Origin: a virus
Lineage: Duplodnaviria; Heunggongvirae; Uroviricota; Caudoviricetes
IMG/VR virus record: IMGVR_UViG_2713897073_000006
Strand: one strand, 5' to 3'
Length of the DNA stretch: 26,128 nt
Shown here: positions 1,252-26,128 of the stretch, piece by piece
Numbering within the stretch: the stretch's first letter is position 1
Layout of the letters: the number at the start of each line of letters is the position of its first letter
The notes under the pieces: model-generated
Told to the model about the DNA's origin: nothing
What the model saw: the letters and a program-made list of their open reading frames with translations, nothing else
Database searches by the model: none
Program-made: the position numbers and the translations under genes

Positions 1252-1254
1252 CGT

Positions 1255-1449
1255 TTAATAGTTCTGCTGATTTTCTTCCATCTCGGCTTCTGCTGCCAGT
1301 GATTCAATTTTATCTGCGAATATTGCTGACAGTGTTGCAAATTCAGCATCAGTGACAGCGGGAATTGGAACAAACCTGATCCCGCTGTGTGCAAGCATGT
1401 TTGCAGTTTCAAGGCATTTCCTTAAATCTGCTGGTGATGCCCGGTTCAT
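1255..1449 (-). CDS. Hypothetical small acidic protein (64 aa)
   Basis: ATG at 1449..1447 overlaps the TGA stop of the upstream methyltransferase gene (ATGA coupling), with GGGAG about 9 nt upstream. Product MNRASPADLRKCLETANMLAHSG...EEMEENQQNY. Last gene of the leftward operon, converging on int. Confidence 0.4.
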   Translation of the reverse strand: MNRASPADLRKCLETANMLAHSGIRFVPIPAVTDAEFATLSAIFADKIESLAAEAEMEENQQNY

Positions 1450-2096: not shown

Positions 2097-2388
2097 AAAC
2101 CACCCCGCAACATCCTATACCGCTATAGTCGCCACGGCGAAGGCCGTTACCTTTTGTGATACATTGGTCCCTGCGAACCGCGATCCTTGCACGCTCAACA
2201 TCACCAGAAGCAACATCCATACACTGAAGCCAAAGGTGAGCGGCAATGCGGAACTGTCCTTTTTTCTCTCTTTCAATTGCGCGTTTTTCGATCTCTATCG
2301 CCGCAGGAGTAACGGCGACAATCTTTGACGGACTGCGCATTGAAACCTTGTTCATGTGATATTTTTCAAGTCGGCTTAACTTTCTCAC
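2089..2388 (-). CDS. Hypothetical protein (start uncertain: GTG 2388 or ATG 2355/2340)
   Basis: ORF in the leftward operon whose stop overlaps the methyltransferase start. GTG at 2388 is preceded by AGAGGG; the alternative ATG at 2340 is preceded by AAGG. No recognisable domain. Confidence 0.45.
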   Translation of the reverse strand: MRKLSRLEKYHMNKVSMRSPSKIVAVTPAAIEIEKRAIEREKKGQFRIAAHLWLQCMDVASGDVERARIAVRRDQCITKGNGLRRGDYSGIGCCGVVYD

Positions 2389-2497
2389 TTAATCCAACCC
2401 TCTCTGAAAATTAATGCCAGCAGATAAAGCCATGCTGAAACAGAGGCCAGGAATAAGTACCATCCTGACCATTTGCTCCAGTGCCTTAGCAGCACAC

Positions 2498-2746
2498 TCA
2501 TGCAGCGTTGCTCACAGGACGATATACACGTTGCTGAACAGGAGGCTTTTTACCCTGGAACTCTGCCGGGCTTGCTGCCTGACGTTCATCAAGCCAACGC
2601 TCAACTTCATCACGGTTCCATGCGCAGCGTTTGTCAGTGATATACCAGCGTTTAGGAAATTCCCCTGCGCGCTCCATGCGGTCGATAGTGCTCCATGACA
2701 GTGGCACCACCGCCAGGAGTTCCTTCTTACCTAATGCACCTTTCAT
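2498..2746 (-). CDS. AlpA-family (excisionase-like) small DNA-binding regulator
   Basis: 82-aa protein MKGALGKKELLAVVPLSWSTIDRMERAGEFPKRWYITDKRCAWNRDEVERWLDER matches the AlpA / prophage CP4-57 regulatory protein HTH pattern. GAGAGG ribosome-binding site upstream of the ATG. Confidence 0.75.
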   Translation of the reverse strand: MKGALGKKELLAVVPLSWSTIDRMERAGEFPKRWYITDKRCAWNRDEVERWLDERQAASPAEFQGKKPPVQQRVYRPVSNAA

Positions 2747-2795
2747 AAATACCTCTCTTGGTTGCAGTGCGGCGCGCGTGGCGCCGCGGTGGTGG

Positions 2796-3737
2796 TTACA
2801 TAGATGTTTCGTTTAATTCTTCTCGACGAACGCTGTAAACGTCGGTGGCTTTTGCCAGCAGTTCGTCATCATCTGAAAGTTTTTGTGCAATGTATTTGTA
2901 AGCTTTATCCAGTTCGAAGACAGTGCTGTAATTCATCGCTGCGCTGGTAAAGGCCATCAGCATTTCTTCTGGATCACGGCTATCCGCTTTACGCGTTTGC
3001 TCATCAGGCTTTTTCACTTGTTTAGCGTTGATCAGACTGTTCATTCCCGCAGCAGTGGTCGTTTGCGGAGTAATGTCTCGCTCAACGCGCGGTGCCGTTT
3101 CCTGTAATTCGTCTGGTGTGTAGACGCCCATGATTACGTCAGGACAGTGCAGGCGAGACCAGCGTTTTGTCGCAAGGTATGCGAGTTGTTGTTTCGGATC
3201 ACTGGCCCAAAGTGTGGAGTTTCTTACCTGTGCTTGAGACAGCATTAACTCAAGCACTCGAGGTTGATCCTCGCCCTTCATGGTTGCCCATACGCGAACA
3301 CCGCAGCCTTCTTCGTCTTTTAGAGTCCAGCCTGGTGCGATATATGGATTGCCGTTTTTGGATGTTTTCTCAACAAACTTACCGATCACGCGTTCCCACG
3401 GCCCGAACCACTCGTAGTTGATGCGATCTTTTGTTGGCGACATCGTTGAGATAACTGCGTTTACTAATTGGGCTTCATAACCTAGCGTGCCGTTCACAAC
3501 ATGGGTTTTCTGAGCCACGGCAAACGGGTTCATTCCCCACTGCGCAGCCTGCATTGCCACGGCCATGCAATCAGCTGGTTTCCCGGCGAGGTGCGCCGGT
3601 ACCGTTACGCGGCTTTGCGCCATTACCTCGGCGAATTTCATCAGTTGGTTCAAGCCGTCTGGGCTGAAAATAGTTGCAGCAGTTCCAGCGATTGCTGTGT
3701 CTACTGGTGCGTTGATGTTTGCGATGTCGTTGCTCAT
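2796..3737 (-). CDS. recT: RecT/Bet-family single-strand annealing protein
   Basis: The central region (WGMNPFAVAQK...GPWERV...LWASDPKQQLAYLATKRWSRL) parallels the lambda Bet / RecT core. ATG at 3737 has an AGGA ribosome-binding site and overlaps the exonuclease stop (ATGA). The ORF track extends the frame to 3764. Confidence 0.8.
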   Translation of the reverse strand: MSNDIANINAPVDTAIAGTAATIFSPDGLNQLMKFAEVMAQSRVTVPAHLAGKPADCMAVAMQAAQWGMNPFAVAQKTHVVNGTLGYEAQLVNAVISTMSPTKDRINYEWFGPWERVIGKFVEKTSKNGNPYIAPGWTLKDEEGCGVRVWATMKGEDQPRVLELMLSQAQVRNSTLWASDPKQQLAYLATKRWSRLHCPDVIMGVYTPDELQETAPRVERDITPQTTTAAGMNSLINAKQVKKPDEQTRKADSRDPEEMLMAFTSAAMNYSTVFELDKAYKYIAQKLSDDDELLAKATDVYSVRREELNETSM

Positions 3738-5007: not shown

Positions 5008-5025
5008 ACTTGTTACCTCGGTCTG

Positions 5026-5040
5026 TTACCGTTGAGGTAA
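5026..5040. promoter_or_regulatory. Palindromic operator-like site TTACCgttgaGGTAA (site a)
   Basis: Perfect TTACC-N5-GGTAA inverted repeat, 19 nt upstream of the first leftward gene and overlapping a putative -10 region. Confidence 0.6.
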
Positions 5041-5068
5041 TAATTATGCTTATTTGGTTTGGTGTCAA
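5040..5068 (-). promoter_or_regulatory. Putative PL-like sigma70 promoter for the leftward early operon
   Basis: On the minus strand, TTGACA (complement of 5063-5068) is followed about 16-17 nt later by TAATTA/CATAAT-like hexamers, flanked by operator sites a and b. The -10 assignment is approximate. Confidence 0.4.
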
Positions 5069-5087
5069 TAGATATGAGTTAAAAAAA

Positions 5088-5102
5088 TTACCCGTAAGGT
5101 AA
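5088..5102. promoter_or_regulatory. Palindromic operator-like site TTACCcgtaaGGTAA (site b)
   Basis: Perfect TTACC-N5-GGTAA, 62 bp from site a, on the other side of the putative PL promoter. Confidence 0.6.
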
Positions 5103-5114
5103 TCTATCTGGCAA

Positions 5115-5159: not shown

Positions 5160-5744
5160 TTATTGTTTGCTTTTTTCGTTCTGGTTGATGACAAATTCAA
5201 TGTAACTTTCGATCTTTGCCTTCTCTGTTTCAGGTAACAATGCGTAGCGCGAGCGGTCATAGTTGATAGTCGCGGGGTCGTGCGGGTGAATCAGTAATTC
5301 ATATCCGTGACGCCCAAATGCGGATGCAACATTCTCCAGGGTGGAAATGGAAACGCTGACCTCATTGTTTAACAGGCGGCTGATTGTTACCTGGGCGACG
5401 CCGGATGCGCGGTGAAGTTTTCCCTGCGTTGAAAGGTCGCGGCTTTCGCTCATCCAGCGTTCCAGGTTGTGAGCCGCCAGTTGACCAATGTCGCTTGGTC
5501 CGACAGGCTGAAAACCTTCCTGAGAAAGCGAGCGATCGATATCAAGCCAGTTACGGGGTTTATTGGCGGCAGCTTCAATTTTTCGCGCAACCTGGTCGCC
5601 GATAACCTTCTTGCCAAGAGCCCAGCGGTTTACCAGATTTGCCTGAGTTCCAAGTTTTTCAGCCATCCGCGTCTGAACACCATTGAATTCACGGTCGATC
5701 AAGTCGTTGAGATTTTGCCTGCGGACGTCCTGGATACTTTTCAT
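5160..5744 (-). CDS. Prophage repressor, two HTH-like segments and no S24 peptidase domain
   Basis: 194-aa ORF divergent from the Cro-like gene. HTH-like segments QTRMAEKLGTQANLVNRWALGKK and ASGVAQVTISRLLNNEVSVSISTLENVASAFG. No Ala-Gly / Ser-Lys autocleavage module is visible. Confidence 0.75.
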   Translation of the reverse strand: MKSIQDVRRQNLNDLIDREFNGVQTRMAEKLGTQANLVNRWALGKKVIGDQVARKIEAAANKPRNWLDIDRSLSQEGFQPVGPSDIGQLAAHNLERWMSESRDLSTQGKLHRASGVAQVTISRLLNNEVSVSISTLENVASAFGRHGYELLIHPHDPATINYDRSRYALLPETEKAKIESYIEFVINQNEKSKQ

Positions 5745-5799
5745 TTTCTGGAAAATCGCCTCATATCTGAATCAGAAGATGATTCAATTTAAAGCAATA

Positions 5800-5814
5800 T
5801 TACCCAACAGGTAA
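5800..5814. promoter_or_regulatory. Palindromic operator-like site TTACCcaacaGGTAA (site c)
   Basis: Perfect TTACC-N5-GGTAA in the repressor/cro divergent region, on the repressor (PRM) side. Confidence 0.6.
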
Positions 5815-5844
5815 ATGCACCTCATGGGTAACTATCCTTGATTT

Positions 5845-6200: not shown

Positions 6201-6279
6201 AAAAAACCAAATATGGTTGATCTTTTTTTTGTGTCAGCACAAAATAACCGTAATCCCAATACTAATAACAGGGCTTACC

Positions 6280-7311: not shown

Positions 7312-8093
7312 ACAACGTTTTTACCGCGATACAAAACCGTGACGGAGAAGCCCTTTCTCGCATGTCAGGTTATGAGCATCAGTACACCAACAATGACAAC
7401 GTAGTGAACATGTCAGCAGAGAGGCTTGTTGATGCCCTTTTCAAACAGTTGAAACAACTGTTTCCGGCGGCAGTGGTAACCAACCTGAAGACGCCAGAGC
7501 AGGAAGTTGCTGCAAAACAGCAGTGGATTGCTGCGTTTGCCGAAGGGGGGATCCGAACCCGTGAACAGGTTTCTGCTGGTATGCGCCACGCCCGCGCCAG
7601 TGAATCTCCGTTCTGGCCGTCGCCAGGGCAATTTATCAAGTGGTGTAAAGACAGCAAGATGGTTCTTGGCGTCACCATTGACGATGTGATGGCGGAGTTT
7701 CACCGGTACAGCAAGGAAAAAAGTTTATATCCTGGTGGTCCCGAAAGATTCCCGTGGCGGCATCCGGTTATGTACTGGGTCGTATGTGATACACGCCGTG
7801 CAATGTATCAGCGCCAGCTTAGCGAGATTGAGGTTGAGAAACACGCGCGCAGGCTGCTCGATGATTGGGCGAAAAAGGTGGCTTCCGGACAGCAGATACC
7901 CGATCCGGTGATCAGCATACAGGCAAAGCCAGAGCCCATGAGTACGCCTCCGGACACAGGGAGAGACGTTTACCATCCACCAGGGCGAAGTTTCGGGTGC
8001 ATGCCTAACGCCGCCACCCTTGGGGGAATAACACCGGCGCAGTGGCTGATGGAGGAATACAGGCGGGGAAAGGCGGCAGGATTTATCAAGTAA
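7308..8093 (+). CDS. Replication protein P-like (DnaB helicase loader)
   Basis: Protein contains FWPSPGQFIKWC, matching the lambda P motif FLPSPGQFVAWC, and the flanking regions align. GTG at 7308 overlaps the O stop (GTGA) with GGGAGG 7 nt upstream; an alternative ATG lies at 7293. Confidence 0.8.
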   Translation: MNNVFTAIQNRDGEALSRMSGYEHQYTNNDNVVNMSAERLVDALFKQLKQLFPAAVVTNLKTPEQEVAAKQQWIAAFAEGGIRTREQVSAGMRHARASESPFWPSPGQFIKWCKDSKMVLGVTIDDVMAEFHRYSKEKSLYPGGPERFPWRHPVMYWVVCDTRRAMYQRQLSEIEVEKHARRLLDDWAKKVASGQQIPDPVISIQAKPEPMSTPPDTGRDVYHPPGRSFGCMPNAATLGGITPAQWLMEEYRRGKAAGFIK

Positions 8094-8098
8094 TACCA

Positions 8099-8118
8099 GC
8101 GCGATAGCGCATTTTTTT
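8099..8118 (+). terminator. Weak terminator-like hairpin plus T-run after the P-like gene
   Basis: Short stem GCGC / GCGC around GATA (8099-8110) followed by seven T. The stem is only 4 bp, so this is tentative. Confidence 0.35.
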
Positions 8119-8130
8119 ACGTCTATATGA

Positions 8131-8145
8131 TTACCTGGAAGGTAA
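8131..8145. promoter_or_regulatory. Palindromic operator-like site TTACCtggaaGGTAA (site f)
   Basis: Perfect motif upstream of the virion operon; forms a pair with site g. Confidence 0.6.
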
Positions 8146-8192
8146 TAAAATGTTCTAATCTCTATTGATTTCATGTCTTATGTGGTTTTTAA

Positions 8193-8207
8193 TTACCTAA
8201 GGGGTAA
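8193..8207. promoter_or_regulatory. Palindromic operator-like site TTACCtaaggGGTAA (site g)
   Basis: Perfect motif ending 4 nt before the ATG at 8211. It is 62 bp from site f, the same spacing as the a/b pair, with a TTGATT -35-like hexamer between them. Confidence 0.6.
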
Positions 8208-8210
8208 ATC

Positions 8211-8399
8211 ATGAGAAAACAGATACAGGCTCTTGGTCGACTCAAAACAGGCCAGATGAACAAAACAGAATCTGCGTATTGCCAGCACCTTGAGCTGCGT
8301 AAACGTGCAGGGGAAATCGCCTGGTATCGATTCACCATCAGTGCCTGCAACACCAGAAGTTCAGGCAGCACCACAGGAGCAGGATGCCGCCGTTGTTGA
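8211..8399 (+). CDS. Hypothetical small protein; possibly the N-terminal part of a frameshifted gp7.3-like gene
   Basis: ATG at 8211 with AAGGGG 6 nt upstream. Product MRKQIQALGRLKTGQMNKTESAYCQHLELRKRAGEIAWYRF... The +1 frame is open from 8260 and encodes the gp7.3-like C-terminus. Confidence 0.35.
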   Translation: MRKQIQALGRLKTGQMNKTESAYCQHLELRKRAGEIAWYRFTISACNTRSSGSTTGAGCRRC

Positions 8400-8523
8400 T
8401 GCCCGCGACGAAGAAACTCGTCGCCGTCGCGCTGCTGCTGGTCGTAGTTCTACGCTGCTTACCGGTTCTCAGGGCGACACATCAACCGCTAATACCAGCG
8501 GTAAAACGCTGCTTGGTCAGTAA
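8290..8523 (+). CDS. T7 gp7.3/gp6.7-like virion protein, C-terminal region (no convincing own start)
   Basis: C-terminal ...PEVQAAPQEQDAAVVDARDEETRRRRAAAGRSSTLLTGSQGDTSTANTSGKTLLGQ resembles the T7 gp7.3 C-terminus (VEVPQAAAQ...RKKARAGGKKSLSV...) from memory. Lies directly upstream of the portal, as in T7. The frame starts only at TTG/GTG codons without a ribosome-binding site. Confidence 0.45.
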   Translation: MSCVNVQGKSPGIDSPSVPATPEVQAAPQEQDAAVVDARDEETRRRRAAAGRSSTLLTGSQGDTSTANTSGKTLLGQ

Positions 8524-8537
8524 CCGGAGTCATTGAA

Positions 8538-10217
8538 ATGGCGGAAACAACTAAAGAGCGATTGAACAAACAGTTCGCACAACTTGAAAGCGAGCGTCAG
8601 TCGTTCGAGCCGCACTGGCGCGAGTTGAGTGATTACATCAACCCGCGTGGTTCCCGCTTTCTGACTTCTGAGGTCAACCGTAACGATCGACGCAATACAC
8701 GCATTATTGATTCGACCGGGACTATGGCGGCGCGCACTCTCGCCAGCGGCATGATGTCAGGCATCACAAGCCCCGCGCGTCCGTGGTTTCGCCTGGCTAC
8801 GCCAGATCCTGAAATGATGGATTATGGCCCTGTTAAGTTGTGGCTTGAGGCGGTGCAGAACCGCATGAACGATATGTTCAATAAGTCGAATCTCTATCAG
8901 TCGCTGCCGCAGTTATACGGAAGCCTCGGCACATACAGCACTGGCGCAATGGCGGTGCTGGAGGATGACGAGGACATCATTCGTACAATGCCATTCCCGA
9001 TAGGAAGTTACTACCTGGCTAACTCACCTCGTGGCAGTGTGGACACCTGTTTTCGCAAGTTCTCTATGACTGTTCGTCAGCTTGTTCAGGAGTTCGGGCT
9101 AAATAACGTCAGCGAATCCGTAAAAAGCATGTGGGAAAGCGGCACCTACGAGAAGTGGATTGACGTGATGCATTCGGTTTACCCGAACATTGACCGCGAT
9201 ACATCGAAGCTGGATAGCAAGAACAAGCCATTCAAATCGGTTTATTACGAGGTTGGTGGCGATAACGACAAGTTGTTGCGTGAGTCCGGATTTGATGAGT
9301 TTCCAATTATGGCTCCGCGCTGGGAAGTTAACGGCGAAGATGTTTATGGATCATCATGCCCGGGTATGCTGGCGCTTGGACCTGTTAAGGCATTGCAGCT
9401 TCTCCAGAAGCGCAAGTCGCAGTTGATTGATAAAGCCACCAATCCGCCGATGGTTGCTCCGACTTCCCTCAAGAATCAGCGTGCCTCCCTTCTTCCTGGC
9501 GACATCACGTATATCGATCAGATTACTGGTCAGGATGGTTTCAGGCCTGCTTATCTGGTTAACCCCAGTACAGCAGATTTGGTGGCAGACATTCAGGACA
9601 CTCGTCAAATCATTAACAGCGCCTACTTTGTCGATCTGTTCATGATGTTGCAGAACATCAATACCCGCTCGATGCCTGTTGAAGCGGTGATCGAAATGAA
9701 AGAAGAAAAACTTCTGATGTTGGGGCCGGTTCTGGAGCGTCTGAACGACGAATGTCTTAACCCTCTCATTGACCGCGCTTTCTCGATGATGGTGCGTAAA
9801 AACATGCTGCCGCCACCGCCTGACGCGATGGAAGGTATGCCCCTGAAGGTCGAATACATTTCCGTCATGGCTCAGGCGCAGAAGTCTATCGGCCTGTCCA
9901 GTCTGGCGTCCACGGTTAACTTCATTGGTCAACTTGCGCAAGCGAAACCAGAAGCTCTCGACAAACTCAACGTTGATCAGGCGATCGATGCATTCGCTGA
10001 TATGTCCGGAGTGTCTCCAACCGTCATTGTTCCGCAGGAACAGGTTGAGCAGGCTCGCCAGCAACGGGCACAGCAACAACAGCAGCAACAAATGATGGCG
10101 ATGGGGATGGCGGCGGCACAGGGTGCCAAGACGCTAAGCGAAGCTAAAACTTCGGATCCGAGTGTTTTGTCAGCTATGGCGAATGCAGTTAGTGGTCAGG
10201 GTGGGCAATCACAATGA
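8538..10217 (+). CDS. Portal (head-to-tail connector) protein, T7 gp8-like
   Basis: 559-aa ORF with GGAG ribosome-binding site. Overall architecture and the Gln-rich C-terminus (QQRAQQQQQQQMMAMGMAAAQGAK...) parallel the T7 gp8 C-terminus (QKQQKMAQQSMQMGMDNGAAALAQGMAAQ). Confidence 0.85.
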   Translation: MAETTKERLNKQFAQLESERQSFEPHWRELSDYINPRGSRFLTSEVNRNDRRNTRIIDSTGTMAARTLASGMMSGITSPARPWFRLATPDPEMMDYGPVKLWLEAVQNRMNDMFNKSNLYQSLPQLYGSLGTYSTGAMAVLEDDEDIIRTMPFPIGSYYLANSPRGSVDTCFRKFSMTVRQLVQEFGLNNVSESVKSMWESGTYEKWIDVMHSVYPNIDRDTSKLDSKNKPFKSVYYEVGGDNDKLLRESGFDEFPIMAPRWEVNGEDVYGSSCPGMLALGPVKALQLLQKRKSQLIDKATNPPMVAPTSLKNQRASLLPGDITYIDQITGQDGFRPAYLVNPSTADLVADIQDTRQIINSAYFVDLFMMLQNINTRSMPVEAVIEMKEEKLLMLGPVLERLNDECLNPLIDRAFSMMVRKNMLPPPPDAMEGMPLKVEYISVMAQAQKSIGLSSLASTVNFIGQLAQAKPEALDKLNVDQAIDAFADMSGVSPTVIVPQEQVEQARQQRAQQQQQQQMMAMGMAAAQGAKTLSEAKTSDPSVLSAMANAVSGQGGQSQ

Positions 10218-10512: not shown

Positions 10513-11208
10513 ATGAATTTATTTGAGCGTTTGCTGTATCGCCGTCTTTGCAATGAGCAACCAGTCGATGGTGGAGCAGCTCCGGCTGCGTCAGAACCGT
10601 CAGCGCCTGCAGGTGATAACCCTGCTCCAGTTGGTGATCCATCACAATCGGAAGGTGATAAGCCACAACCTGTTGCTGATGGCGATAAACCTGCTGATGA
10701 CAAAAAGCCTGAAAGCGATAAGCAGGGTGAAAAAAAGGACGGCGATAAACCGGATGGTGCGCCGGAGAAGTACGAGTTTCAGGCTGCCGAAGGCGTAGAG
10801 CTGGATACAGAAGCGTTAAAGGAATTCGAGCCGGTGGCGCGAGAACTAAACCTGACCAACGAGCAAGCGCAAAAGCTGGTTGATGCTTATCCGAAGATTC
10901 TGGCAGGTGTTCAGCAGCGCCAGGCAGAAGCCTGGCAGAAAACAACCGAGCAGTGGGCTGCGGATGTAAAAGCTGACAAAGAAATCGGTGGCGACAAGTT
11001 GATTTCTAACCTTAGCTCCGCACAGCGTGCGCTTGACCAGTTCGGGACACCTGAACTCAAAGAATATCTGAACACCACCGGGCTGGGTAATCACCCTGAT
11101 CTGGTCAAAACGTTCGTGAAAATCGGAAAGGCGATGTCTGAAGATGGCATGGTCACCGGTGGTAATGAAGGCCAGCGTAGTGCGGCCGAAGTGCTCTATG
11201 GCAAATAA
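10513..11208 (+). CDS. Putative scaffolding protein
   Basis: ATG at 10513 with AGGAG 5 nt upstream. N-terminal half is a low-complexity acidic, Pro/Lys-rich region (DGDKP repeats); C-terminal half looks helical. Assigned by position between portal and capsid. Confidence 0.55.
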   Translation: MNLFERLLYRRLCNEQPVDGGAAPAASEPSAPAGDNPAPVGDPSQSEGDKPQPVADGDKPADDKKPESDKQGEKKDGDKPDGAPEKYEFQAAEGVELDTEALKEFEPVARELNLTNEQAQKLVDAYPKILAGVQQRQAEAWQKTTEQWAADVKADKEIGGDKLISNLSSAQRALDQFGTPELKEYLNTTGLGNHPDLVKTFVKIGKAMSEDGMVTGGNEGQRSAAEVLYGK

Positions 11209-11222
11209 GAGAGGAGATAACA

Positions 11223-12209
11223 ATGGCTGTTAAAGGCTTAACTGCGCTAACGCTGGCTGACTGGGGTAAGCGCGTCGATCCAAATGGGAAAGTCGATAAG
11301 ATTATCGAGCTTCTCAATCAAACTAACCCAATTCTTCAGGATATGCCTTTTGTTGAAGGAAACCTTCCTACCGGACACCGAACCACCATTCGTTCTGGTT
11401 TACCTTCTGCTACCTGGCGTTTGCTGAACTATGGCGTACAGCCAAGCAAATCAACCACAGTGCAGGTCACCGATTCCATTGGCATGCTGGAAACCTATGC
11501 TGAAGTCGATAAGTCTCTGGCTGATCTGAACGGTAATACTGCCGAATTCCGTCTGTCTGAAGACCGAGCATTTATTGAAGCGATGAATCAGGCGATGGCG
11601 CAGACACTGTTTTACGGTGATTCCAGCGTTAACCCTCAGCAGTTTATGGGACTGTCCTCCCGCTATTCCAGCCTGTCTGCGGGTAATGCTCAGAACATCA
11701 TTGATGCTGGTGGCACGGGTACAGATAACACTTCAATCTGGTTAGTGGTGTGGGGCGAAAACACCGTGCATGGCATCTTCCCGAAAGGACAGAAGGCTGG
11801 CATTCAGATGGAAGATAAAGGCCAGGTGACACTGGAAGATGCTAATGGCGGCAAGTACGAAGGTTATCGTACCCATTATAAGTGGGACAACGGGCTGACA
11901 TTACGTGACTGGCGCTATGTAGTTCGTATCGCAAACATCGATGTCAGCAATCTTTCAGAACCTTCCTCTGCCGCAAATATTGCGAAGTTGATGGTTAAAG
12001 CACTGCATCGCATTCCAAACCGTGGCATGGGTCGCCCGGTGTTCTACATGAACCGCACTGTAGGCCAGGCTCTTGATCTGCAATCTCTGGAGAAAACATC
12101 TCTGGCTATCAGCGTAAAAGAGACTGAAGGCGAGTGGTGGACTTCATTCCGTGGTGTACCAATCCGTGAAACTGATGCGCTTCTGGAAACAGAAGCCCGC
12201 GTGGTGTAA
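11223..12209 (+). CDS. Major capsid protein
   Basis: 328-aa ORF with a strong GAGGAG ribosome-binding site, directly after the scaffold gene, as in podovirus head modules. Assigned by position and size, not by a recognised motif. Confidence 0.7.
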   Translation: MAVKGLTALTLADWGKRVDPNGKVDKIIELLNQTNPILQDMPFVEGNLPTGHRTTIRSGLPSATWRLLNYGVQPSKSTTVQVTDSIGMLETYAEVDKSLADLNGNTAEFRLSEDRAFIEAMNQAMAQTLFYGDSSVNPQQFMGLSSRYSSLSAGNAQNIIDAGGTGTDNTSIWLVVWGENTVHGIFPKGQKAGIQMEDKGQVTLEDANGGKYEGYRTHYKWDNGLTLRDWRYVVRIANIDVSNLSEPSSAANIAKLMVKALHRIPNRGMGRPVFYMNRTVGQALDLQSLEKTSLAISVKETEGEWWTSFRGVPIRETDALLETEARVV

Positions 12210-12260
12210 CGCCTGTTATTAACCTGTGGGTCGTAACAGACCCACTAATGGAGAAAGAAG

Positions 12261-12593: not shown

Positions 12594-14305
12594 CGAAGAA
12601 CGGACCATTTGAAGATATCAATATTGACGAGTCAGTGACGGTTTATGCCAGCGCCAGCACCGGGACAATTACGTTAACGGCAAGCGCCTCTATTTTTGGC
12701 GCGGAGCAGGTAGGCAAATTGTTCTATCTGGAACAGCCTGCAGTGGATTCAGTGCCGGTATGGGAAACCAGTAAGAGTACGTCGATTGGCGATATTCGCC
12801 GTGCAGACAGTAACTACTATCGCGCCGTTACAGCAGGCAAAACAGGTACTTTGCGCCCTTCGCATACAGAAGGCACATCATGGGATGGCTGGGGCGGATC
12901 CGGTGATGATGATACTGGCATTGAGTGGGAATATCTGCACAGTGGTTTTGGCATTGCCCGTATCACTGCTGCAAATGGAACTACTGCAACTGCCGAGGTG
13001 ATTTCCTATATCCCTTCGCAGGTAGTTGGCGAGGATAATGCCAGCTATAAATGGGCTAAATATGCCTGGAACAGTGTTAATGGTTATCCTGGCACTGTTG
13101 TTTATTATCAACAACGTCTTTACTTCGCCGCATCGACTGCGTTCCCTCAGACTATCTGGGCTAGCCGTACCGGGGATTATAAGGATTTTGGCAAAAGCAA
13201 TCCTACGCAGGATGACGACAGAATTATCTACACCTATGCCGGGCGTCAGGTTAATGAGATCCGCCACCTGATTGATGTCGGTTCGCTGGTGGCACTGACT
13301 TCCGGAGGTGAGTACGTCATCACCGGCGACCAGAACAAAGTGTTAACCCCATCATCATTTGCATTCAGCTCTCAGGGATCAAATGGCTCGAGCAATGTCC
13401 CACCAATTGCCGTGGCGAATATTGCTCTGTTCGTCCAGGAGAAAGGCAGTGTTGTCCGTGATCTGGCCTACTCATTCGATGTTGACGGCTATCAGGGGAA
13501 CGACCTGACCATCCTTGCCAATCATCTTTTTCAGAAGCACAGCATTGTTGACTGGTGCTTCTCTATTGTCCCTTACTCCAGCGCCTTCTGCATTCGTGAT
13601 GACGGTAAATTACTGGTGATGACCTATTTGCGTGATCAGCAGGTTTTTGCATGGGCACCACAATCCAGTACCGGAAAATATGAAAGCACATGCAGTATCA
13701 GCGAAGGAAATGAAGATGCGGTGTATTTCGTTGTTAACCGAACCGTTAACGGGCAAACAGTGAGATACATCGAGCGACTGTCCAGCCGTTTATTTACCAG
13801 CGATGAAGATGCTTTCTTTGTTGATTCTGGCCTTAGCTATGATGGAAGAAATACGTCTGACAGAACGATGACCATCACTGGTGGTTCTGGCGAATGGGAT
13901 TACCGCGCGGAATATACAATCAGTATTTCTGGTGGTGCGTACTTCACCAGTAGTGATGTCGGTGCGCAACTACAGTTCCCTTATACCGGCGCTGATTTAT
14001 CTACCGGTAACGCGCTGGATATATTTGGTGACACTGCTCAGTTTGGCGCTCTTGATTCGCTGACGACGGTGAATAACGCGCAACGCGAGGCTTACGGTTA
14101 TCAGGTTCAGGCTGCCAACTATAAAGCAGAAGCCAGTTCAGCCCGTAAACAGGGGAATGTGGGAGCAGCAACAACATTGCTCACTGCGCCTCTGAAGGCA
14201 TACGGTGCGTACCAGATGTTTGGTGGGACGTGGAGTCCGTTTACTCAAAGCACCCCTGCGCCAATCGGGGCAGCAGCAGGAACCAGATTACCCGGAGGAT
14301 TATAA
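12548..14305 (+). CDS. Virion structural protein (tail tube/hub-type candidate), start unresolved
   Basis: 585-aa Ser/Thr/Gly-rich ORF. The frame has no ATG near its 5' end (track start is TTG 12548 without a ribosome-binding site). Stop TAA overlaps the next ATG (TAATG). Confidence 0.6.
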   Translation: MRRYAHDNWQLVDVVTKNGPFEDINIDESVTVYASASTGTITLTASASIFGAEQVGKLFYLEQPAVDSVPVWETSKSTSIGDIRRADSNYYRAVTAGKTGTLRPSHTEGTSWDGWGGSGDDDTGIEWEYLHSGFGIARITAANGTTATAEVISYIPSQVVGEDNASYKWAKYAWNSVNGYPGTVVYYQQRLYFAASTAFPQTIWASRTGDYKDFGKSNPTQDDDRIIYTYAGRQVNEIRHLIDVGSLVALTSGGEYVITGDQNKVLTPSSFAFSSQGSNGSSNVPPIAVANIALFVQEKGSVVRDLAYSFDVDGYQGNDLTILANHLFQKHSIVDWCFSIVPYSSAFCIRDDGKLLVMTYLRDQQVFAWAPQSSTGKYESTCSISEGNEDAVYFVVNRTVNGQTVRYIERLSSRLFTSDEDAFFVDSGLSYDGRNTSDRTMTITGGSGEWDYRAEYTISISGGAYFTSSDVGAQLQFPYTGADLSTGNALDIFGDTAQFGALDSLTTVNNAQREAYGYQVQAANYKAEASSARKQGNVGAATTLLTAPLKAYGAYQMFGGTWSPFTQSTPAPIGAAAGTRLPGGL

Positions 14306-18622: not shown

Positions 18623-21097
18623 ATGAGACAGGAATGTATACAAGCGGTCCAGCAGGCGGCGCAGCGCACGTTAACGGCGCGAGAAATACAGAACATTGAA
18701 GACCGCATTTATCGAAATATGCGCTCCATTGCTCGTGATGACCCGATGTCGTGGCGACAACTTTCCGAATCAGAACGGTTGTATCGTGCAGCACAATTGG
18801 CATCTGAAGAATTACAGCGAGAAGCGGCATTAAAGAAACGTCGTGTGGCCCTCACTATAGCCGCACGTCAGAGATTGGATAAATTTATCAATAACTATCA
18901 AGGGGCTGATGGGAAACTTGGCGCTCTTAACCGTACTATTGCTTTTAATGCAGACGGTAAATCGAATTTCCTCTCTGTTGAATCCAGAACAAAAGCCACT
19001 CGTGATTATGCATTGAGTCAATTGCAGGAGGCATTTGAAGCAGTTGATCCTCGCTTTTTTGGCCTGTTTGAAGATGAAGCGGGCGTGCGTGACCTGGTAT
19101 ATGAAATGCGAGGGCAAAATACTGGCAATGCTAAAGCAAGAAAAGGTGCTAAGGCGTGGAGAGAAGTGACAGATCTACTTCGCCGCCGGTTTAATGATGC
19201 TGGTGGGGACATTGGCTATCTCGAAAACTGGGGGATCCCTCAACATCATTCTATGGAAAAGGTTGGGGCGGTATCAAAAGATAAATGGGTTAGCGATGTT
19301 ATAGGTAAGCTGGATCGCAAATATTATACCCGAGCCGATGGACAACTGATGAACGATGCCGAGTTGTCTGCATTTCTTGGAGAGGCTTATAACACGATCG
19401 CTACTGGTGGGCTGAATAAGCTTACTGACACCGGAATGCGAATTTCCGGAGCACGTGCTAACCGTGGTAATGCATCACGACAGATACATTTCAAAGATGC
19501 AGATTCCTATCTGCAATATCAGCAACTTTATGGCGATCGCTCTCTATGGGAAATCATGGTCGGTCACCTGGAAGGTATCAGTAAAGATATTGCACTGGTG
19601 GAAACATATGGCCCAAACCCCGATCATGTTTTCCGCTCTCTTCTTGATCAGGTGAAGGCAGAAACGGCAACAGCTAACCCGAGTAAAACCGGTAGCGTCG
19701 AGCGTCTGGCGAACAAAACAGAGAACTTGTACAACTTTATTTCCGGAAAAACACAGCCTGTAGCGAATCCCCACATCGCGCGATGGTCTGACAATATCCG
19801 CAACTGGCTGGTTGCCAGCAGACTCGGATCCGCGTTGCTGTCATCGTTCTCTGATCTTGGAACCATGTATCTGTCTGCGAAGGTTACCAACCTTCCAATG
19901 AACCAGTTATTTCGCAACCAGCTTGAAGCTATTGACCCAACGAACCGTACTGAGCTTGCGCGGGCGCGCCGCGCTGGCCTGGCGATGGAATCTCTACTTG
20001 GCAGCGTTAACCGCTGGGCGATGGATAATATGGGGCCGTCTGTGTCTCGTTGGGCGGCAACGGCGGTAATGCGTGCCAGTGGGCTTACAGCATGGTCAGA
20101 TGCGCACAAGCGCGCCTATGGCGTAACCATGATGGGAAGCCTGGGAGAAGTAGTGTCACGGACACCAGACCTTCGTAGCCTCGATGACTCTGATTTTCGT
20201 ATCCTGAAAAGTAAAGGGATTACTGACACAGACTGGAGCGTATGGAAGCTGGCGCAACAGGAGGACTGGGGGAACGGTAATAATACGATGCTGACACCGG
20301 AAAGCATTATGCGTATCCCTGATTCAGCAGTTAAACATCTTGGTGAGCCTGAACGCGTGAAATTTGAGGCAATGCGTAAACTGCTCGGTGCCGTAACTGA
20401 AGAAGTTGATATGGCTGTTATTACACCGGGCGCACGTGAGCAGATGTTCGTAGGGTCTGGTCTTCAGCGTGGAACATGGAAAGGTGAATTAACGAGAAGT
20501 GTTTTCCTGTTTAAATCGTTCCCTATCTCGGTTGTTATGCGTCACTGGTCACGCGCTATGGGTATGCCGTCTGCTGGTGGGCGTGCAGCATATATAGCAA
20601 CGTTTTTAGCAAGCACAACCATGCTTGGTGCTCTTTCCATGCAGATTACTGATCTTATTAATGGGAGAAATCCAAAGGAAATGACCGGTGACCACATGGT
20701 TAAATTCTGGATAAATGCATTTTTAAAAGGTGGCGGGGCTGGGTTGTACGGTGATTTTCTTTTCTCTGACCACACTAGGTACGGGAGCGGCGCGCTGGCG
20801 TCGATGCTTGGCCCGGTAGCTGGTCTGGTTGATGATGTAGTGAAGATTGCTCAGGGCATACCGTTAAATGCTGTGGAAGGGAAGAGTGAGCAGACTGGTG
20901 GTGATCTGGTGAAGCTGGGGAAAGGTTTGATGCCTGGTGCGAATCTCTGGTACTTGAAGGCGGCTCTCGATCACATGATCTTTAACCAGATGCAGGAGTA
21001 TTTTTCACCAGGTTATTTGCGTAAAATGGAGCAACGTTCGAAGAAAGAGTTTAACCAGACATACTGGTGGCGACCACAGGATGTCACTCCGCAATAA
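18623..21097 (+). CDS. Large internal virion / ejection protein (824 aa)
   Basis: GAGAGG ribosome-binding site. Last large gene of the structural operon; size and position match a T7 gp16-type core protein. No catalytic motif identified with confidence. Confidence 0.7.
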   Translation: MRQECIQAVQQAAQRTLTAREIQNIEDRIYRNMRSIARDDPMSWRQLSESERLYRAAQLASEELQREAALKKRRVALTIAARQRLDKFINNYQGADGKLGALNRTIAFNADGKSNFLSVESRTKATRDYALSQLQEAFEAVDPRFFGLFEDEAGVRDLVYEMRGQNTGNAKARKGAKAWREVTDLLRRRFNDAGGDIGYLENWGIPQHHSMEKVGAVSKDKWVSDVIGKLDRKYYTRADGQLMNDAELSAFLGEAYNTIATGGLNKLTDTGMRISGARANRGNASRQIHFKDADSYLQYQQLYGDRSLWEIMVGHLEGISKDIALVETYGPNPDHVFRSLLDQVKAETATANPSKTGSVERLANKTENLYNFISGKTQPVANPHIARWSDNIRNWLVASRLGSALLSSFSDLGTMYLSAKVTNLPMNQLFRNQLEAIDPTNRTELARARRAGLAMESLLGSVNRWAMDNMGPSVSRWAATAVMRASGLTAWSDAHKRAYGVTMMGSLGEVVSRTPDLRSLDDSDFRILKSKGITDTDWSVWKLAQQEDWGNGNNTMLTPESIMRIPDSAVKHLGEPERVKFEAMRKLLGAVTEEVDMAVITPGAREQMFVGSGLQRGTWKGELTRSVFLFKSFPISVVMRHWSRAMGMPSAGGRAAYIATFLASTTMLGALSMQITDLINGRNPKEMTGDHMVKFWINAFLKGGGAGLYGDFLFSDHTRYGSGALASMLGPVAGLVDDVVKIAQGIPLNAVEGKSEQTGGDLVKLGKGLMPGANLWYLKAALDHMIFNQMQEYFSPGYLRKMEQRSKKEFNQTYWWRPQDVTPQ

Positions 21098-22601: not shown

Positions 22602-23330
22602 TCAGAAGAACCCTGCCTTGTCGTTGATGTACTCCGCGTGGGTCTGGATATCACGCAGGCATTTGCTCACACCGACGATGTAGCAGAACATGGTGGTCAG
22701 TTCCGCCGCCGCGCCCGATACGTCATGCCCGTCTTCCTGTAACTGGTTCAGCAAATTCATCAGCAGTGAGTTCTCCGTCAGGCCGAGAACACCAGACGGC
22801 GAATGAATCAGGCTACGGTAGCCGGGCTTCAGTGGGGCGCTGTAGGTTTTGTTCTCTATCTTCATTGCCTGCATCACTGCTGATGCTGTGGCGTTGGCTA
22901 CCTGGTCGGCAACCATCTTTATGCGTTCTTCTTGCGGGAGCGAGTTTTTAATGTAACTTCCGGTGCGGCGGATCTGAGGAAGAACCTCACCTGTAACCCA
23001 TTTACGAAAGCGGTATGGGATAGTGCCTGGTGTCACCGCATCGCGGCAGCGGAGGATCAGTGTGTAGAGGCCTGACTCGTTGATAATATTGGTTTCGCCT
23101 TGACGGCCTAAGTTAAATTTAGCCCTTTCATCATCATCAAGAGATTTTATTGACATAGTGGGGTTTGTCAGTTGAAGAGCTTTAATAACGTCTTTGGCAA
23201 CAAACCAAGGATTAATCGCAAATCCAACTCTCCTCAGAGTTATAACGCTCAAACGCTTTACACATACTTTGTGTTGGTGCTGGAGGGCGTTCAAGGGCAG
23301 CCATGACTTGCTCCCAAACATCCTCTTCAA
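22602..23330 (-). CDS. Bro-N domain antirepressor-like protein (N-terminus uncertain)
   Basis: Contains the Bro-N signature ...FAINPWFVAKDVIKAL...INESGLYTLILRCRDAV...FRKWVTGEVLPQIRRTGSY. The C-terminal roughly 90 aa are paralogous to the small protein at 24440..24697. The 5' 119 nt overlap the upstream RHH gene in another frame; an alternative ATG lies at 23156. Confidence 0.65.
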   Translation of the reverse strand: MKRMFGSKSWLPLNALQHQHKVCVKRLSVITLRRVGFAINPWFVAKDVIKALQLTNPTMSIKSLDDDERAKFNLGRQGETNIINESGLYTLILRCRDAVTPGTIPYRFRKWVTGEVLPQIRRTGSYIKNSLPQEERIKMVADQVANATASAVMQAMKIENKTYSAPLKPGYRSLIHSPSGVLGLTENSLLMNLLNQLQEDGHDVSGAAAELTTMFCYIVGVSKCLRDIQTHAEYINDKAGFF

Positions 23331-23496
23331 CGATCAAGCGGCGATGTTCATTAATAACTGTTTCAGCTCTAAAAGTCGCAGACTCCATTACAAATTGAGA
23401 TACGGACACTTTAGAAATAACAGCAGCTTCTTCGATACGGCGCTTCGCAGCTTCGGGCAGACGAAACTCGAACCGCTCCTTTCTTACTGCGTTCAT
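23212..23496 (-). CDS. DUF1778 / TacA-like ribbon-helix-helix protein (antitoxin-type fold)
   Basis: ATG at 23496 with AGGAG 5 nt upstream. The 94-aa product MNAVRKERFEFRLPEAAKRRIEEAAVISKVSVSQFVMESATFRAETVINEHRRLIVEEDVWEQVMAALERPPAPT matches the DUF1778 antitoxin pattern. No GNAT toxin gene follows. Confidence 0.75.
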   Translation of the reverse strand: MNAVRKERFEFRLPEAAKRRIEEAAVISKVSVSQFVMESATFRAETVINEHRRLIVEEDVWEQVMAALERPPAPTQSMCKAFERYNSEESWICD

Positions 23497-23560
23497 AACA
23501 ACTCCTGAGCTAATGCTCACAGTGGTTTATACCACATAACGATATGCACGGTACGGGAAT

Positions 23561-23575
23561 TTACCGTACAGGTAA
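23561..23575. promoter_or_regulatory. Palindromic operator-like site TTACCgtacaGGTAA (site i)
   Basis: Perfect motif 65 nt upstream of the RHH gene start, in the promoter region of the RHH / Bro-N operon. Confidence 0.6.
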
Positions 23576-23653
23576 TGATAAGCGCGAAGAAACATTAAAA
23601 TCAACCTTATTTGGTTGATTGCGTTTAACGCTTGATCACCTGAAAGCAAGATA

Positions 23654-23668
23654 TTACCTTTAAGGTAA
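23654..23668. promoter_or_regulatory. Palindromic operator-like site TTACCtttaaGGTAA (site j)
   Basis: Perfect motif 21 nt upstream of the ATG of the zinc-ribbon membrane-protein gene. Identical to site h. Confidence 0.6.
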
Positions 23669-23688
23669 TGTTATTGTGAGGAAAAGCA

Positions 23689-24417
23689 ATGGAAGTTTTC
23701 TGGATAGTTGTTGGTGTGGTTGCGGTGATTATTTACGTTATCAACCAGAACAAGACTAAGATCTCTGATCGTACGGTCGTTAATCATAACAAAACGATAA
23801 AGACCGAAGATGGGGAGATAACGATTAATCGTACACAGGTGATAGAACACACCTCTACTCAGTTTCAAAAAACTGGAGGTAATGCGCCTAATATTTCCGC
23901 ACCTCCTGCTTATGATAGTGCGGTAATCCAGACATATTATAAACAGCAGGAGTTAGCAAAAGAGAGGCAACTGATTCAGCCAAAGCCGTTTACAACTGAG
24001 ATTCCACCTGGAGTGTCAACGCGTCCGGCATATCATGGAAGATTCCCTGGTGATGACATATCGTCTCAGTCATCTAAAAAAGCACCTCAGGCAATATCAG
24101 AGCCAGCAAGAATACCTTCTGTATCGCCGCAAAAAGAAGAATCAGCTAACAGAGTTTCAAGTGGTAGCAAGCAGTGCTTGCGATGCAGAATAAACCTTCC
24201 ATATGAAAAATTCAGGAAATCGTCAAAAAATCCAGATGGATTGACTAAATGGTGTGCAAGGTGTCTCGATGGCCCAAAGAATACACGCCATATGAAGTGG
24301 TGCCCAATTTGTAATGTCCGCAGAAAACGAACCAGCTTTTACCCTAATAATCAAAATGCGGACGGCTTAATGGCATGGTGCAAAACGTGCTGGGATGAGC
24401 ACAAAGCGAAACGATAG
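23689..24417 (+). CDS. Membrane-anchored protein with C-terminal tandem C4 zinc ribbons (function unknown)
   Basis: GAGG ribosome-binding site. N-terminal hydrophobic helix MEVFWIVVGVVAVIIYVI, long polar Ser/Pro/Gln-rich linker, then two repeats of C-x2-C ... (N)xDGL-x2-WC-x2-C (CLRC...PDGLTKWCARC and CPIC...ADGLMAWCKTC). Confidence 0.7.
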   Translation: MEVFWIVVGVVAVIIYVINQNKTKISDRTVVNHNKTIKTEDGEITINRTQVIEHTSTQFQKTGGNAPNISAPPAYDSAVIQTYYKQQELAKERQLIQPKPFTTEIPPGVSTRPAYHGRFPGDDISSQSSKKAPQAISEPARIPSVSPQKEESANRVSSGSKQCLRCRINLPYEKFRKSSKNPDGLTKWCARCLDGPKNTRHMKWCPICNVRRKRTSFYPNNQNADGLMAWCKTCWDEHKAKR

Positions 24418-24441
24418 GCCGCTCTTGCGGCCTTTAAATTT
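24417..24441. terminator. Bidirectional terminator-like hairpin between convergent genes
   Basis: Stem GGCCGC / GCGGCC (24417-24422 / 24427-24432), loop TCTT, followed by TTTAAATTT on the plus strand. Sits between the stop of the zinc-ribbon gene (24417) and the stop of the minus-strand gene (24440). Confidence 0.55.
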
Positions 24442-24697
24442 ACCGGGTTTGTTTTCGTAATTGTTCGGCACAATAGTCGAGATGTGTTTGCAGATCCCGC
24501 ATAGACATCTGTGAGCTGGTGACGTAGTTAATCAGTGCAGTCAGTTCGGCAAGTGGGCCATCGACATTAAATCCATCCTTATCGAGATCCCGGAGTAATT
24601 TCATCAAGTGCGATCCCTCCACCAGTGACCTGACGCCTCCCGGCGTGTGAATCCTTTCGGTAAATCCGTCTTCCAGTGGATAGTGATACCGCTGCAT
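24440..24697 (-). CDS. Small protein paralogous to the Bro-N protein C-terminal domain; candidate SOS-inducible antirepressor
   Basis: ATG at 24697 with GGAG ribosome-binding site (the track's TTG start at 24715 was rejected). The 85-aa product (...SHLMKLLRDLDKDGFNVDGPLAELTALINYVTSSQMSMRDLQTHLDYCAEQL) aligns by eye with the C-terminus of the 22602..23330 protein (...SLLMNLLNQLQEDGHDVSGAAAELTTMFCYIVGVSKCLRDIQTHAEYINDK). A LexA box lies about 22 nt upstream. Confidence 0.6.
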   Translation of the reverse strand: MQRYHYPLEDGFTERIHTPGGVRSLVEGSHLMKLLRDLDKDGFNVDGPLAELTALINYVTSSQMSMRDLQTHLDYCAEQLRKQTR

Positions 24698-24716
24698 CTT
24701 ATCTTCTCCATGCAAT

Positions 24717-24736
24717 AACTGTATATTTATACAGTA
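24717..24736. promoter_or_regulatory. LexA (SOS) box aaCTGTatatttatACAGta
   Basis: CTGT-N8-ACAG with an AT-rich spacer, near-identical to the E. coli LexA consensus taCTGTatatatatACAGta. Located in the promoter region of the minus-strand gene 24440..24697. Confidence 0.65.
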
Positions 24737-24773
24737 TCAAATAATTTGTTTGCTATCCAGCACGTTTTGCAAA

Positions 24774-24788
24774 TTACCCGAAAGGTAA
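24774..24788. promoter_or_regulatory. Palindromic operator-like site TTACCcgaaaGGTAA (site k)
   Basis: Perfect motif between the LexA-box gene and the tailspike gene, about 40 bp from the LexA box. Confidence 0.6.
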
Positions 24789-24892
24789 TATCTATTCATA
24801 TTCACAGCCTTTCTATCCATATGTGGTTTTTCAGGTAATAGAATAACCAGATATGCGGCGCAACGGGTGCTGCGACTATCTGGAGATTTAAC

Positions 24893-26128
24893 ATGACGGT
24901 CTCAACCGAAGTTGACCACAACGAATACACCGGTAACGGCGTTACGACATCATTTCCGTATACCTTCCGTATTTTCAAAAAAACCGACCTGGTTGTTCAG
25001 GTGTCTGATCTGAACGGGAACGTAACAGAATTGGTTCTGGATACCGGTTATAAGGTAACTGGAGCGGGCACTTATAGTGGCGGTGAAGTGGTTCTCCCGT
25101 CGCCGCTTGCTGCTGGCTGGCGAATTACGATAGAGCGTGTGCTTGATGTGGTGCAGGAGACTGATCTTCGCAATCAGGAAAAATTTTTCCCCGAAGTTCA
25201 TGAAGATGCATTTGACTACCTGACGATGCTGATCCAGCGATGTTTTGGGTGGTTCAGACGTGCATTGATGAAACCCTCGTTGCTTGCAAAATATTACGAT
25301 GCAAAGCAAAACAGAATATCTAACCTTGCTGATCCATCACTTGAGCAGGACGCTGTAAATAATCGCTCAATGCGTAATTATGTCGATGCTGCAATCGCCG
25401 GGGTTGTTGGTGGTTTTGGTTGGTTTATTCAGTATGGTTCTGGAGCAGTATACCGAACGTTCCAGGATAAGATGCGGGATGAAGTAAATATTCGTGATTT
25501 TGGAGCAGGAGATTCAGGTGAAGTTACAGATGCTATTTTGAAGGCTGTTGCAGCTACTAATGGCACCATTATTATCCCGGATGGAAATTATGTTTCTACT
25601 CCAACAGTAACGCAGACTCCGAACGTTATGAAATTGCTTTCACGAGCAGAGTTTAGAGGTTCTTTGACCATCAATCTTCCTGTTGGAACTGTTAACCTAT
25701 CAGAAAAGACGCTAATCAGATCACAAAATGTTCATAAACTTTCTATTTCTGGTATTACGTATTCAACTACGCTAACTGGCTTAGTGGGTGTATCTGGTAT
25801 CCCCAAATCATACCTAGTTACGCTCTCTCTGGCTGATGCTTCAAACGTTTCTGTAGGCGACGTCGTGATGATTCGTCACGATATAACGGGGACAGGAGGA
25901 TATCACATCCATTGTGGCGGATGGGTTGTGACTGCCGTGTCTGGCAAAAATGTTACCGTAAAAAACACCTGCCACCTGTCTGAATTACCAACGTCAACGA
26001 TTACAGGCGGAACAGTAGTCATACTAAAAAGTATTCTGAGATATGCCGGATGTGATGGGATTGTGGCTGCAGGTGCTGGGTGCATTAAGACAATAAACGG
26101 TGTCGCAATTGTTGTCAACGACGGATGA
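24893..26128 (+). CDS. Tail fibre / tailspike protein
   Basis: 411-aa ORF with GGAG ribosome-binding site. N-terminal MTVSTEVDHNEYTGNGVTTSFPYTFRIF...TDLRNQEKFFPEVHEDAFDYLTMLIQ resembles the conserved particle-binding N-terminal domain of enterobacterial phage tail fibres or spikes (from memory). C-terminal part is a Thr/Ser/Gly/Val-rich beta-type region. The stop coincides with the window end. Confidence 0.75.
   Translation: MTVSTEVDHNEYTGNGVTTSFPYTFRIFKKTDLVVQVSDLNGNVTELVLDTGYKVTGAGTYSGGEVVLPSPLAAGWRITIERVLDVVQETDLRNQEKFFPEVHEDAFDYLTMLIQRCFGWFRRALMKPSLLAKYYDAKQNRISNLADPSLEQDAVNNRSMRNYVDAAIAGVVGGFGWFIQYGSGAVYRTFQDKMRDEVNIRDFGAGDSGEVTDAILKAVAATNGTIIIPDGNYVSTPTVTQTPNVMKLLSRAEFRGSLTINLPVGTVNLSEKTLIRSQNVHKLSISGITYSTTLTGLVGVSGIPKSYLVTLSLADASNVSVGDVVMIRHDITGTGGYHIHCGGWVVTAVSGKNVTVKNTCHLSELPTSTITGGTVVILKSILRYAGCDGIVAAGAGCIKTINGVAIVVNDG

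Follow-up and report, generated by a model that had tools for sequence, protein, structure and literature searches.

We analysed a 26,128-nt stretch of viral DNA, hereafter the window, and find that the region around its ant gene is very likely the SOS-sensing module of an epsilon15/phiV10-type prophage, in which a small antirepressor (Ant) gated by host LexA would inactivate the prophage repressor (Rep). In the uninduced cell, LexA would occupy a box at 24717-24736, covering the −10 element of ant and likely its transcription start, so that ant would be silent, and the two-HTH Rep would keep the phage operons off through operators of the form ATTACC-N5-GGTAAT. DNA damage would activate RecA and lead LexA to cleave itself; upon the loss of LexA the 85-aa Ant would be made and would bind Rep, and with Rep off its operators the lytic genes would be expressed. 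This mechanism has already been published for Salmonella phage SPC32H (Kim & Ryu 2013; Kim et al. 2016), and there is no new principle here. Where it cites Kim & Ryu 2013, a 2018 review describes SOS- and LexA-dependent synthesis of Ant, which inactivates the repressor via protein–protein contact, and the part of a 2022 NAR paper that deals with the SPC32H structural work describes a Rep that binds DNA as a tetramer, which is broken when an Ant tetramer engages two Rep dimers. The initial annotation of the window had proposed a LexA-repressed antirepressor in place of repressor self-cleavage; homology of both Ant and Rep to their SPC32H counterparts, conservation of the box and the base difference that marks phage SPC32N all argue for that proposal.

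Identity of the ant gene

The gene ant (24440..24697, minus strand) encodes an 85-aa antirepressor, an orthologue of SPC32H Ant (PDB 5D50_E, PHROG 450). A mechanical list of open reading frames starts the minus-strand frame that ends at 24440 at TTG 24715, giving 91 aa; judged from the sequence, ATG 24697 is the better start, because a GGAG lies 8 nt upstream and because SPC32H ant has its annotated start at the aligned position. The GGAG (24706..24709, minus strand), which we read from the sequence as the ribosome-binding site, is invariant in all 11 phages that we aligned. Ant matched chain E, 'Anti-repressor protein', of PDB 5D50, the Rep–Ant complex of SPC32H, with 71/83 identical residues (~86%, E = 3.5e-46, residues 2-84 on 3-85), and this match settles its identity. 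It likewise matched PHROG 450 (E = 1.2e-47) and was 97.6% identical to phiV10 p24 and 83.5% identical to epsilon15 gp19.

We next placed this small protein relative to the larger antirepressors. A Pfam search of Ant returned no significant match, DUF724 scoring far under its cut-off, and no Bro-N domain, so that the N-terminal domain of large P22-type antirepressors was not found in the 85 residues. Ant corresponds instead to the C-terminal domain alone of Bro-N/P22-type antirepressors (PHROG 1760 positions 175-225, E = 5.4e-07). The initial annotation had described its product as homologous to the C-terminal domain of a Bro-N protein, and we recovered this relationship within the window itself, where Ant is 42% identical over 76 aa (E = 2e-16) to the C-terminal part of the protein encoded at 22602..23330 (minus strand). 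On the annotated maps, the window, SPC32H, phiV10 and epsilon15 also share one layout of the locus, in which ant and the tailspike gene diverge and genes for large internal or injection-type proteins lie upstream of ant. By every feature testable from sequence, the element is a member of the SPC32H-type Ant family.

Downstream, a GC-rich hairpin at 24416..24433 (7 pairs, 6 of them GC) is a likely terminator between ant and a convergent plus-strand gene; a good T-run follows it on the plus strand only. An Rfam search of the window found no known RNA family, and therefore no sign of an antisense RNA of the P22 sar type. The convergent gene (23689-24417, plus strand) sits between ant and the Bro-N cassette and encodes a 242-aa protein of PHROG 6762 (unknown function). 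A hydrophobic stretch is predicted at the N-terminus of this protein, and its two C-terminal repeats, rich in Cys, weakly match zinc modules of the endonuclease VII and Stc1 types. The gene is missing from phiV10 and present in TL-2011b, where it is flagged only as a misc_feature.

A predicted LexA box over the putative ant promoter

The E. coli LexA consensus is TACTGTATATATATACAGTA. At 24717..24736 the window reads AACTGTATATTTATACAGTA (TACTGTATAAATATACAGTT on the ant strand), which matches this 20-mer at 18/20 positions. As the initial annotation had noted, this is a near-consensus box: allowing up to three mismatches, we found no second match in the window and none at all in 100 dinucleotide-preserving shuffles of it. 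The shorter pattern CTGT-N8-ACAG occurred twice in the window against 0.33 expected; the second copy, at 12224, was rejected as a LexA site, since its spacer is GC-rich and it lies inside the coding region of a structural gene. A further LexA-like sequence, CTATTCATATTCACAG (CTAT-N8-ACAG, with one mismatch, in the CTGT arm), lies at 24792-24807, abutting an operator-type palindrome; TL-2011b, phiV10 and SPC32H do not conserve it, and it was set aside as probably due to chance. In the complete genomes of phiV10 and epsilon15, the sole full AT-rich LexA box precedes the ant homologue.

We aligned the ~220 bp that precede ant in the window with the corresponding DNA of ten relatives (TL-2011b, phiV10, SPC32H, SPC32N, epsilon15, two Enterobacter phages and three Klebsiella phages). 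CTGT-N8-ACAG occupies an identical position in 8 E. coli, Salmonella and Enterobacter members, and the Klebsiella members carry ATGT-N8-ACAG. The strings T.CTGGA.A and TG.TA.TGT are invariant in 11/11 aligned phages. Within these conserved columns we place a putative ant promoter (24731..24759, minus strand) composed of a −35 TGGATA (24759..24754), a 17-nt spacer ending in TG (24739..24738) and a −10 TACTGT (24736..24731). This −10 is the left arm of the LexA box and part of an extended −10, TG-n-TACTGT; the −35 is conserved 17 nt upstream of it, reading TGGAAA in the Klebsiella phages. Box, extended −10, −35 and ribosome-binding site stand in the same alignment columns in the window, SPC32H, epsilon15, phiV10 and the Enterobacter relatives. 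A generic σ70 consensus scan of 24300-24950 returned no promoter; it missed this one because the −10 matches at only 3/6 positions. The promoter hexamers are weak. Other hexamer choices, inspected by eye (−35 TTGCAA or TTGATA, −10 TATAAA or TATACA within the box), were dropped for a lower score or for lack of conservation between the window and SPC32H.

Coliphage 186 offers a precedent for this arrangement. Its p95 promoter (NC_001317) has an annotated −10, TACTGT (29044-29049), that is also the first six bases of a LexA site (29044-29063), and the same geometry would hold for ant, with TACTGT serving as both −10 and left box arm; the likeness is one of mechanism and not of family membership. 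The 186 LexA box, TACTGTATGTTTATACAGTA, is identical to that of epsilon15. Conservation together with this precedent makes both the ant promoter and the overlap of its −10 with the box probable, which agrees with the initial annotation, where the box had been placed in the promoter region of the 85-aa gene.

The box is palindromic and lies within the 195-bp divergent ant–tailspike intergenic region, so it could in principle regulate the tailspike or late transcript instead of ant, or be a chance AT-rich palindrome. We consider this extremely improbable: the box lies 20 bp from the ant ATG as against 157 bp from the tailspike ATG, with an operator between box and tailspike, the shuffles gave no chance match, and its position relative to ant is conserved across genera. 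Moreover, across the 220-bp region SPC32H and SPC32N differ by a single base, which falls in the box (ACAG>AAAG); this mutation reportedly makes synthesis of Ant constitutive in SPC32N, a constitutively inducing variant. For the window, these sequence comparisons suggest that LexA would bind the box and that ant would be SOS-inducible.

A repressor without a self-cleavage domain

The presumed target of Ant is the 194-aa product of rep (5160..5744, minus strand), which matched chain A, 'Repressor', of PDB 5D50 over residues 1-190 (E = 3.5e-42) and is 99.5% identical to phiV10 p40. Pfam places an HTH_3 domain at residues 106-147 and a weaker HTH-type match at 21-61, and in this search of the 194 residues Peptidase_S24 was absent, as expected from the initial annotation, which had described a repressor with two HTH segments and no recognisable S24 domain.

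Conservation of the pair is uneven. Rep is 43% identical to SPC32H Rep overall, with 54% identity in the N-terminal and 39% in the C-terminal domain. Binding of this Ant to this Rep is a prediction, since Rep (43%; C-terminal domain 39%) has diverged much further from its SPC32H counterpart than Ant (~86%). The C-terminal domain of Rep reportedly carries the main contacts with Ant, and in the alignment many positions of the Rep C-terminal tail are identical to those of SPC32H Rep.

Across the genus, similarity of Ant does not track similarity of Rep: relative to the window, the Salmonella phages have 87% identical Ant and 43% identical Rep, and Enterobacter phage Tyrion has values of 86% and 78%. 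Such a pattern would be in keeping with an Ant uncoupled from its own Rep, either acting mainly in trans on the repressors of other resident prophages (cross-talk) or travelling as a conserved cassette carried by recombination; antirepressors acting in trans are known for the Gifsy prophages, according to the passage of the 2018 review that cites Lemire 2011. The identical positions kept in the Rep tail speak against uncoupling, as does the presence of a Rep homologue in 35/35 phage records that carry Ant, a co-occurrence that is partly phylogenetic because all these phages belong to one genus. We therefore regard an uncoupled Ant as highly improbable and retain Rep of the same prophage as the probable partner.

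Operator palindromes across the prophage

The initial annotation had placed an operator-like site about 40 bp upstream of the box. We find there a perfect ATTACC-N5-GGTAAT palindrome, ATTACCCGAAAGGTAAT (24773-24789), presumably bound by Rep, in the gap from which ant and the tailspike gene diverge. It lies 36 bp beyond the LexA box, 13 bp upstream of the ant −35 and 104 bp upstream of the tailspike ATG, and spans about −49 to −65 relative to the putative ant promoter. At up to two mismatches, the window holds 11 such sites against 0.66 expected, a count that none of 100 shuffles reached. Nine sites remain at up to one mismatch, and 9/9 are intergenic and regulatory in position. Besides the copy next to ant, two follow rep, another separates rep from cro, two come 62 bp apart behind the replication genes and three surround the TacA-like/Bro-N cassette. 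The two downstream of rep (5025..5103, also 62 bp apart) stand at the head of the leftward early genes, and the rep–cro site lies at 5799..5815. Two sites, at 23560-23576 and 23653-23669, lie upstream of the TacA-like and Bro-N genes, and TL-2011b has both in front of its intact Bro-N gene. In the window, a promoter-like TTGATT-18-TATCAT (23604..23575, minus strand) overlaps the former of these two through its −10.

These palindromes recur in relatives. Beside ant, ATTACC...GGTAA is invariant in 11/11 aligned phages, and in phiV10 and epsilon15 the palindrome is found at corresponding places and marks other intergenic regulatory regions. In the GenBank record of epsilon15, seven copies carry the label 'protein_bind: repressor, lysogeny', one being 19895-19911 upstream of gp19. 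Because of this recurrence and this annotation, we take the palindrome at 24773-24789 to be real and, like the epsilon15 annotators, predict that it is very probably an operator for Rep. It may act on the ant promoter, as the 'dual control' of the initial annotation would have it, or on the divergent tailspike promoter.

Pairs of palindromes are in several cases exactly 62 bp apart, start to start: 5025/5087 and 8130/8192 in the window, 32554/32616 (annotated repressor sites) and 35906/35968 in epsilon15, and 31952/32014 in phiV10; the pair at 5025/5087 has its equivalents in 32554/32616 and 31952/32014. At about six helical turns, this spacing would suit a single Rep tetramer that spans both sites. 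We had considered the pair at 8130/8192 as belonging to a portal operon, an assignment rejected by comparison with phiV10: the pair precedes a DUF1064 gene (p45) and was placed beside the portal genes by deletion. A separate motif, (C)ATATGTGGTTTTT, directly adjoins an ATTACC or GGTAAT half-site at 8180-8190, 24821-24831 and 6202-6212 (minus strand). It precedes the DUF1064 and tailspike genes, with the minus-strand copy near cro, and is conserved in phiV10. The motif overlaps what are called IHF sites in the epsilon15 record; it may bind IHF or belong to a late promoter.

A Bro-N protein with an Ant-like domain

A second antirepressor-domain gene lies at 22602..23252 (minus strand) and encodes a Bro-N protein whose C-terminal ~80 aa form an Ant-like domain. 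Its start is uncertain, with PGAP (NZ_CP024275.1) choosing TTG 23252 and the frame remaining open to 23330. The protein matched Pfam Bro-N (E = 6.7e-18), PHROG 450 on residues 159-240 (E = 4.8e-36) and PHROG 130 'anti-repressor Ant'. Bro-N::Ant-like genes are present in E. coli, Enterobacter and some Klebsiella relatives and absent from SPC32H and epsilon15; Salmonella members, these two included, have one Ant-like region per record. In the window, a TacA-like insertion (23088-23557) replaces the 5′ part of the Bro-N gene relative to TL-2011b, so that the Bro-N domain begins at the motif NPWFVAKDV right after the TacA stop codon. The TacA-like (DUF1778) antitoxin gene itself runs from 23212 to 23496 (minus strand), with no toxin partner nearby, and upstream the two reading frames, Bro-N and TacA, overlap.

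We weighed whether this larger protein is the working antirepressor, the small LexA-controlled protein being an accessory or modulator, for instance a competitor, or a trigger dependent on the larger one. In the E. coli sister phage ZX5, overexpression of the Bro-N 'ORF4 anti-repressor' lowered prophage titre, or lysogeny, ~1000-fold (PMC9782041), in a 2022 study that addressed this protein only and left the small ant gene out. The domain 42% identical to Ant and the two upstream operator palindromes, one of them over a promoter-like −10, point in the same direction. Against this, Salmonella members do without the Bro-N paralogue and yet Ant is credited with induction in SPC32H, the LexA box precedes the small gene only, and the Bro-N domain of the window is without its N-terminal part. 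We judge a primary role for the Bro-N protein improbable and continue to regard the small Ant as the effector.

The two antirepressor genes could also work in series. In such an SOS relay of phiV10-type E. coli prophages, LexA-gated Ant would act first and the Bro-N::Ant-like paralogue second, with or without a Rep–Ant toggle in addition. Loss of Rep from the operators at 23560-23669 may switch on the paralogue and provide a positive-feedback lock on Rep, and the operator 13 bp upstream of the ant −35 may set up mutual repression of Rep and Ant, a LexA-gated toggle that would amount to the 'dual control' suggested in the initial annotation. Salmonella members work without the paralogue and the Bro-N part is truncated in the window, and we consider the relay rather unlikely.

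State of this prophage copy

The window is a prophage of the phiV10/TL-2011b type (Uetakevirus, epsilon15-like), and most of it is 97-98% identical to phiV10. A prophage next to guaA in E. coli O6:H16 genomes, NZ_CP024275.1 among them, showed 100% identity in both stretches that we compared (24400-24900 and 8130-8530). Relative to phiV10, the window has three clean internal deletions (35273-39104 plus 1-3371; 7575-9461; 10926-12221 in phiV10 coordinates), whose junctions lie at 8332/8333, 12533/12534 and 13984-13996 of the window. The first removes ~7.2 kb with both terminase genes, and the other two remove parts of structural genes. In NZ_CP024275.1, PGAP marks the matching structural genes as partial and annotates no terminase gene; outside the window, that genome has holin, endolysin and spanin-type genes annotated as intact. 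The junction of the terminase deletion occurs in 16/5,426 complete E. coli genomes, several of them O6:H16 strains, and the ant module in 531/5,426. The tailspike frame is still open at the window end (26128); in O6:H16 strain M9682-C1 (NZ_CP024275.1 7010-8811) the tailspike is annotated as interrupted, with IS100 (istA/istB) adjacent.

This copy is a defective, non-productive remnant, and no phage production is possible from it because its terminase genes are deleted. The switch here could at most derepress the remaining genes, among them the lysis cassette that is intact in the matching RefSeq genome. Of the prophage induction route put forward in the initial annotation, the module stands; the outcome in virions does not hold for this copy, in which terminase and several structural genes are lost.

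Comparison with other antirepressor systems

The closest known system is the Ant–Rep–LexA switch of SPC32H (PDB 5D50, 5D4Z). The Ant proteins are orthologous, ~86% identical and of the same length; the Rep proteins are orthologous, with two HTH regions and without S24; and in both phages ant diverges from the tailspike gene, the distance from box to start codon is equal and the same operator palindrome lies upstream. The window differs in that its host is E. coli, its Rep is only 43% identical, its phage group also has a Bro-N protein with an Ant-like C-terminal domain, and the copy itself is deleted and non-productive.

More distant systems resemble the module in function. AntC of N15 is a LexA-controlled antirepressor that replaces repressor cleavage, and in coliphage 186 LexA represses a small antirepressor, Tum, that inactivates a non-cleavable immunity repressor. 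The initial annotation had likened the 85-aa gene to Tum and to the Gifsy antirepressors, a comparison that holds for function and fails for descent from Tum: a single BLASTP comparison of Ant with 186 Tum gave 17.3 bits (E = 0.04) and no detectable homology. Tum differs further in being 146 aa long and annotated as DinI-like, and its phage is a P2-like myovirus. SPC32H Ant is said to be structurally distinct from the antirepressors of siphoviruses and myoviruses.

In the short-tailed temperate phage P22, the immI region (ant, arc, mnt) is an antirepressor locus between the injection-protein and tailspike genes, and the c2 repressor is RecA-cleavable. The window resembles P22 in also having a large antirepressor-type protein, the Bro-N protein that matched PHROG 130; no homologues of arc or mnt were seen in the window. 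P22 differs in that its Ant is controlled by the phage proteins Mnt and Arc and not by LexA, and in that, in the 2018 review's account of P22, an ant mutant is still SOS-inducible. For Gifsy-1 and Gifsy-3, the same review's section on these prophages describes antirepressors (GfoA, GfhA) that are LexA-controlled and replace repressor cleavage, and our comparison with them is one of function.

Implications

Carriers of the module include O157 typing phages, phage TL-2011b from an HUS outbreak and O6:H16 strains. The gene is under-annotated in E. coli, appearing as 'hypothetical protein' in RefSeq and in a PHROGs family of 'unknown function'. Recognising ant predicts that these prophages would respond to SOS-inducing antibiotics via LexA and Ant, and not through cleavage of their repressor.
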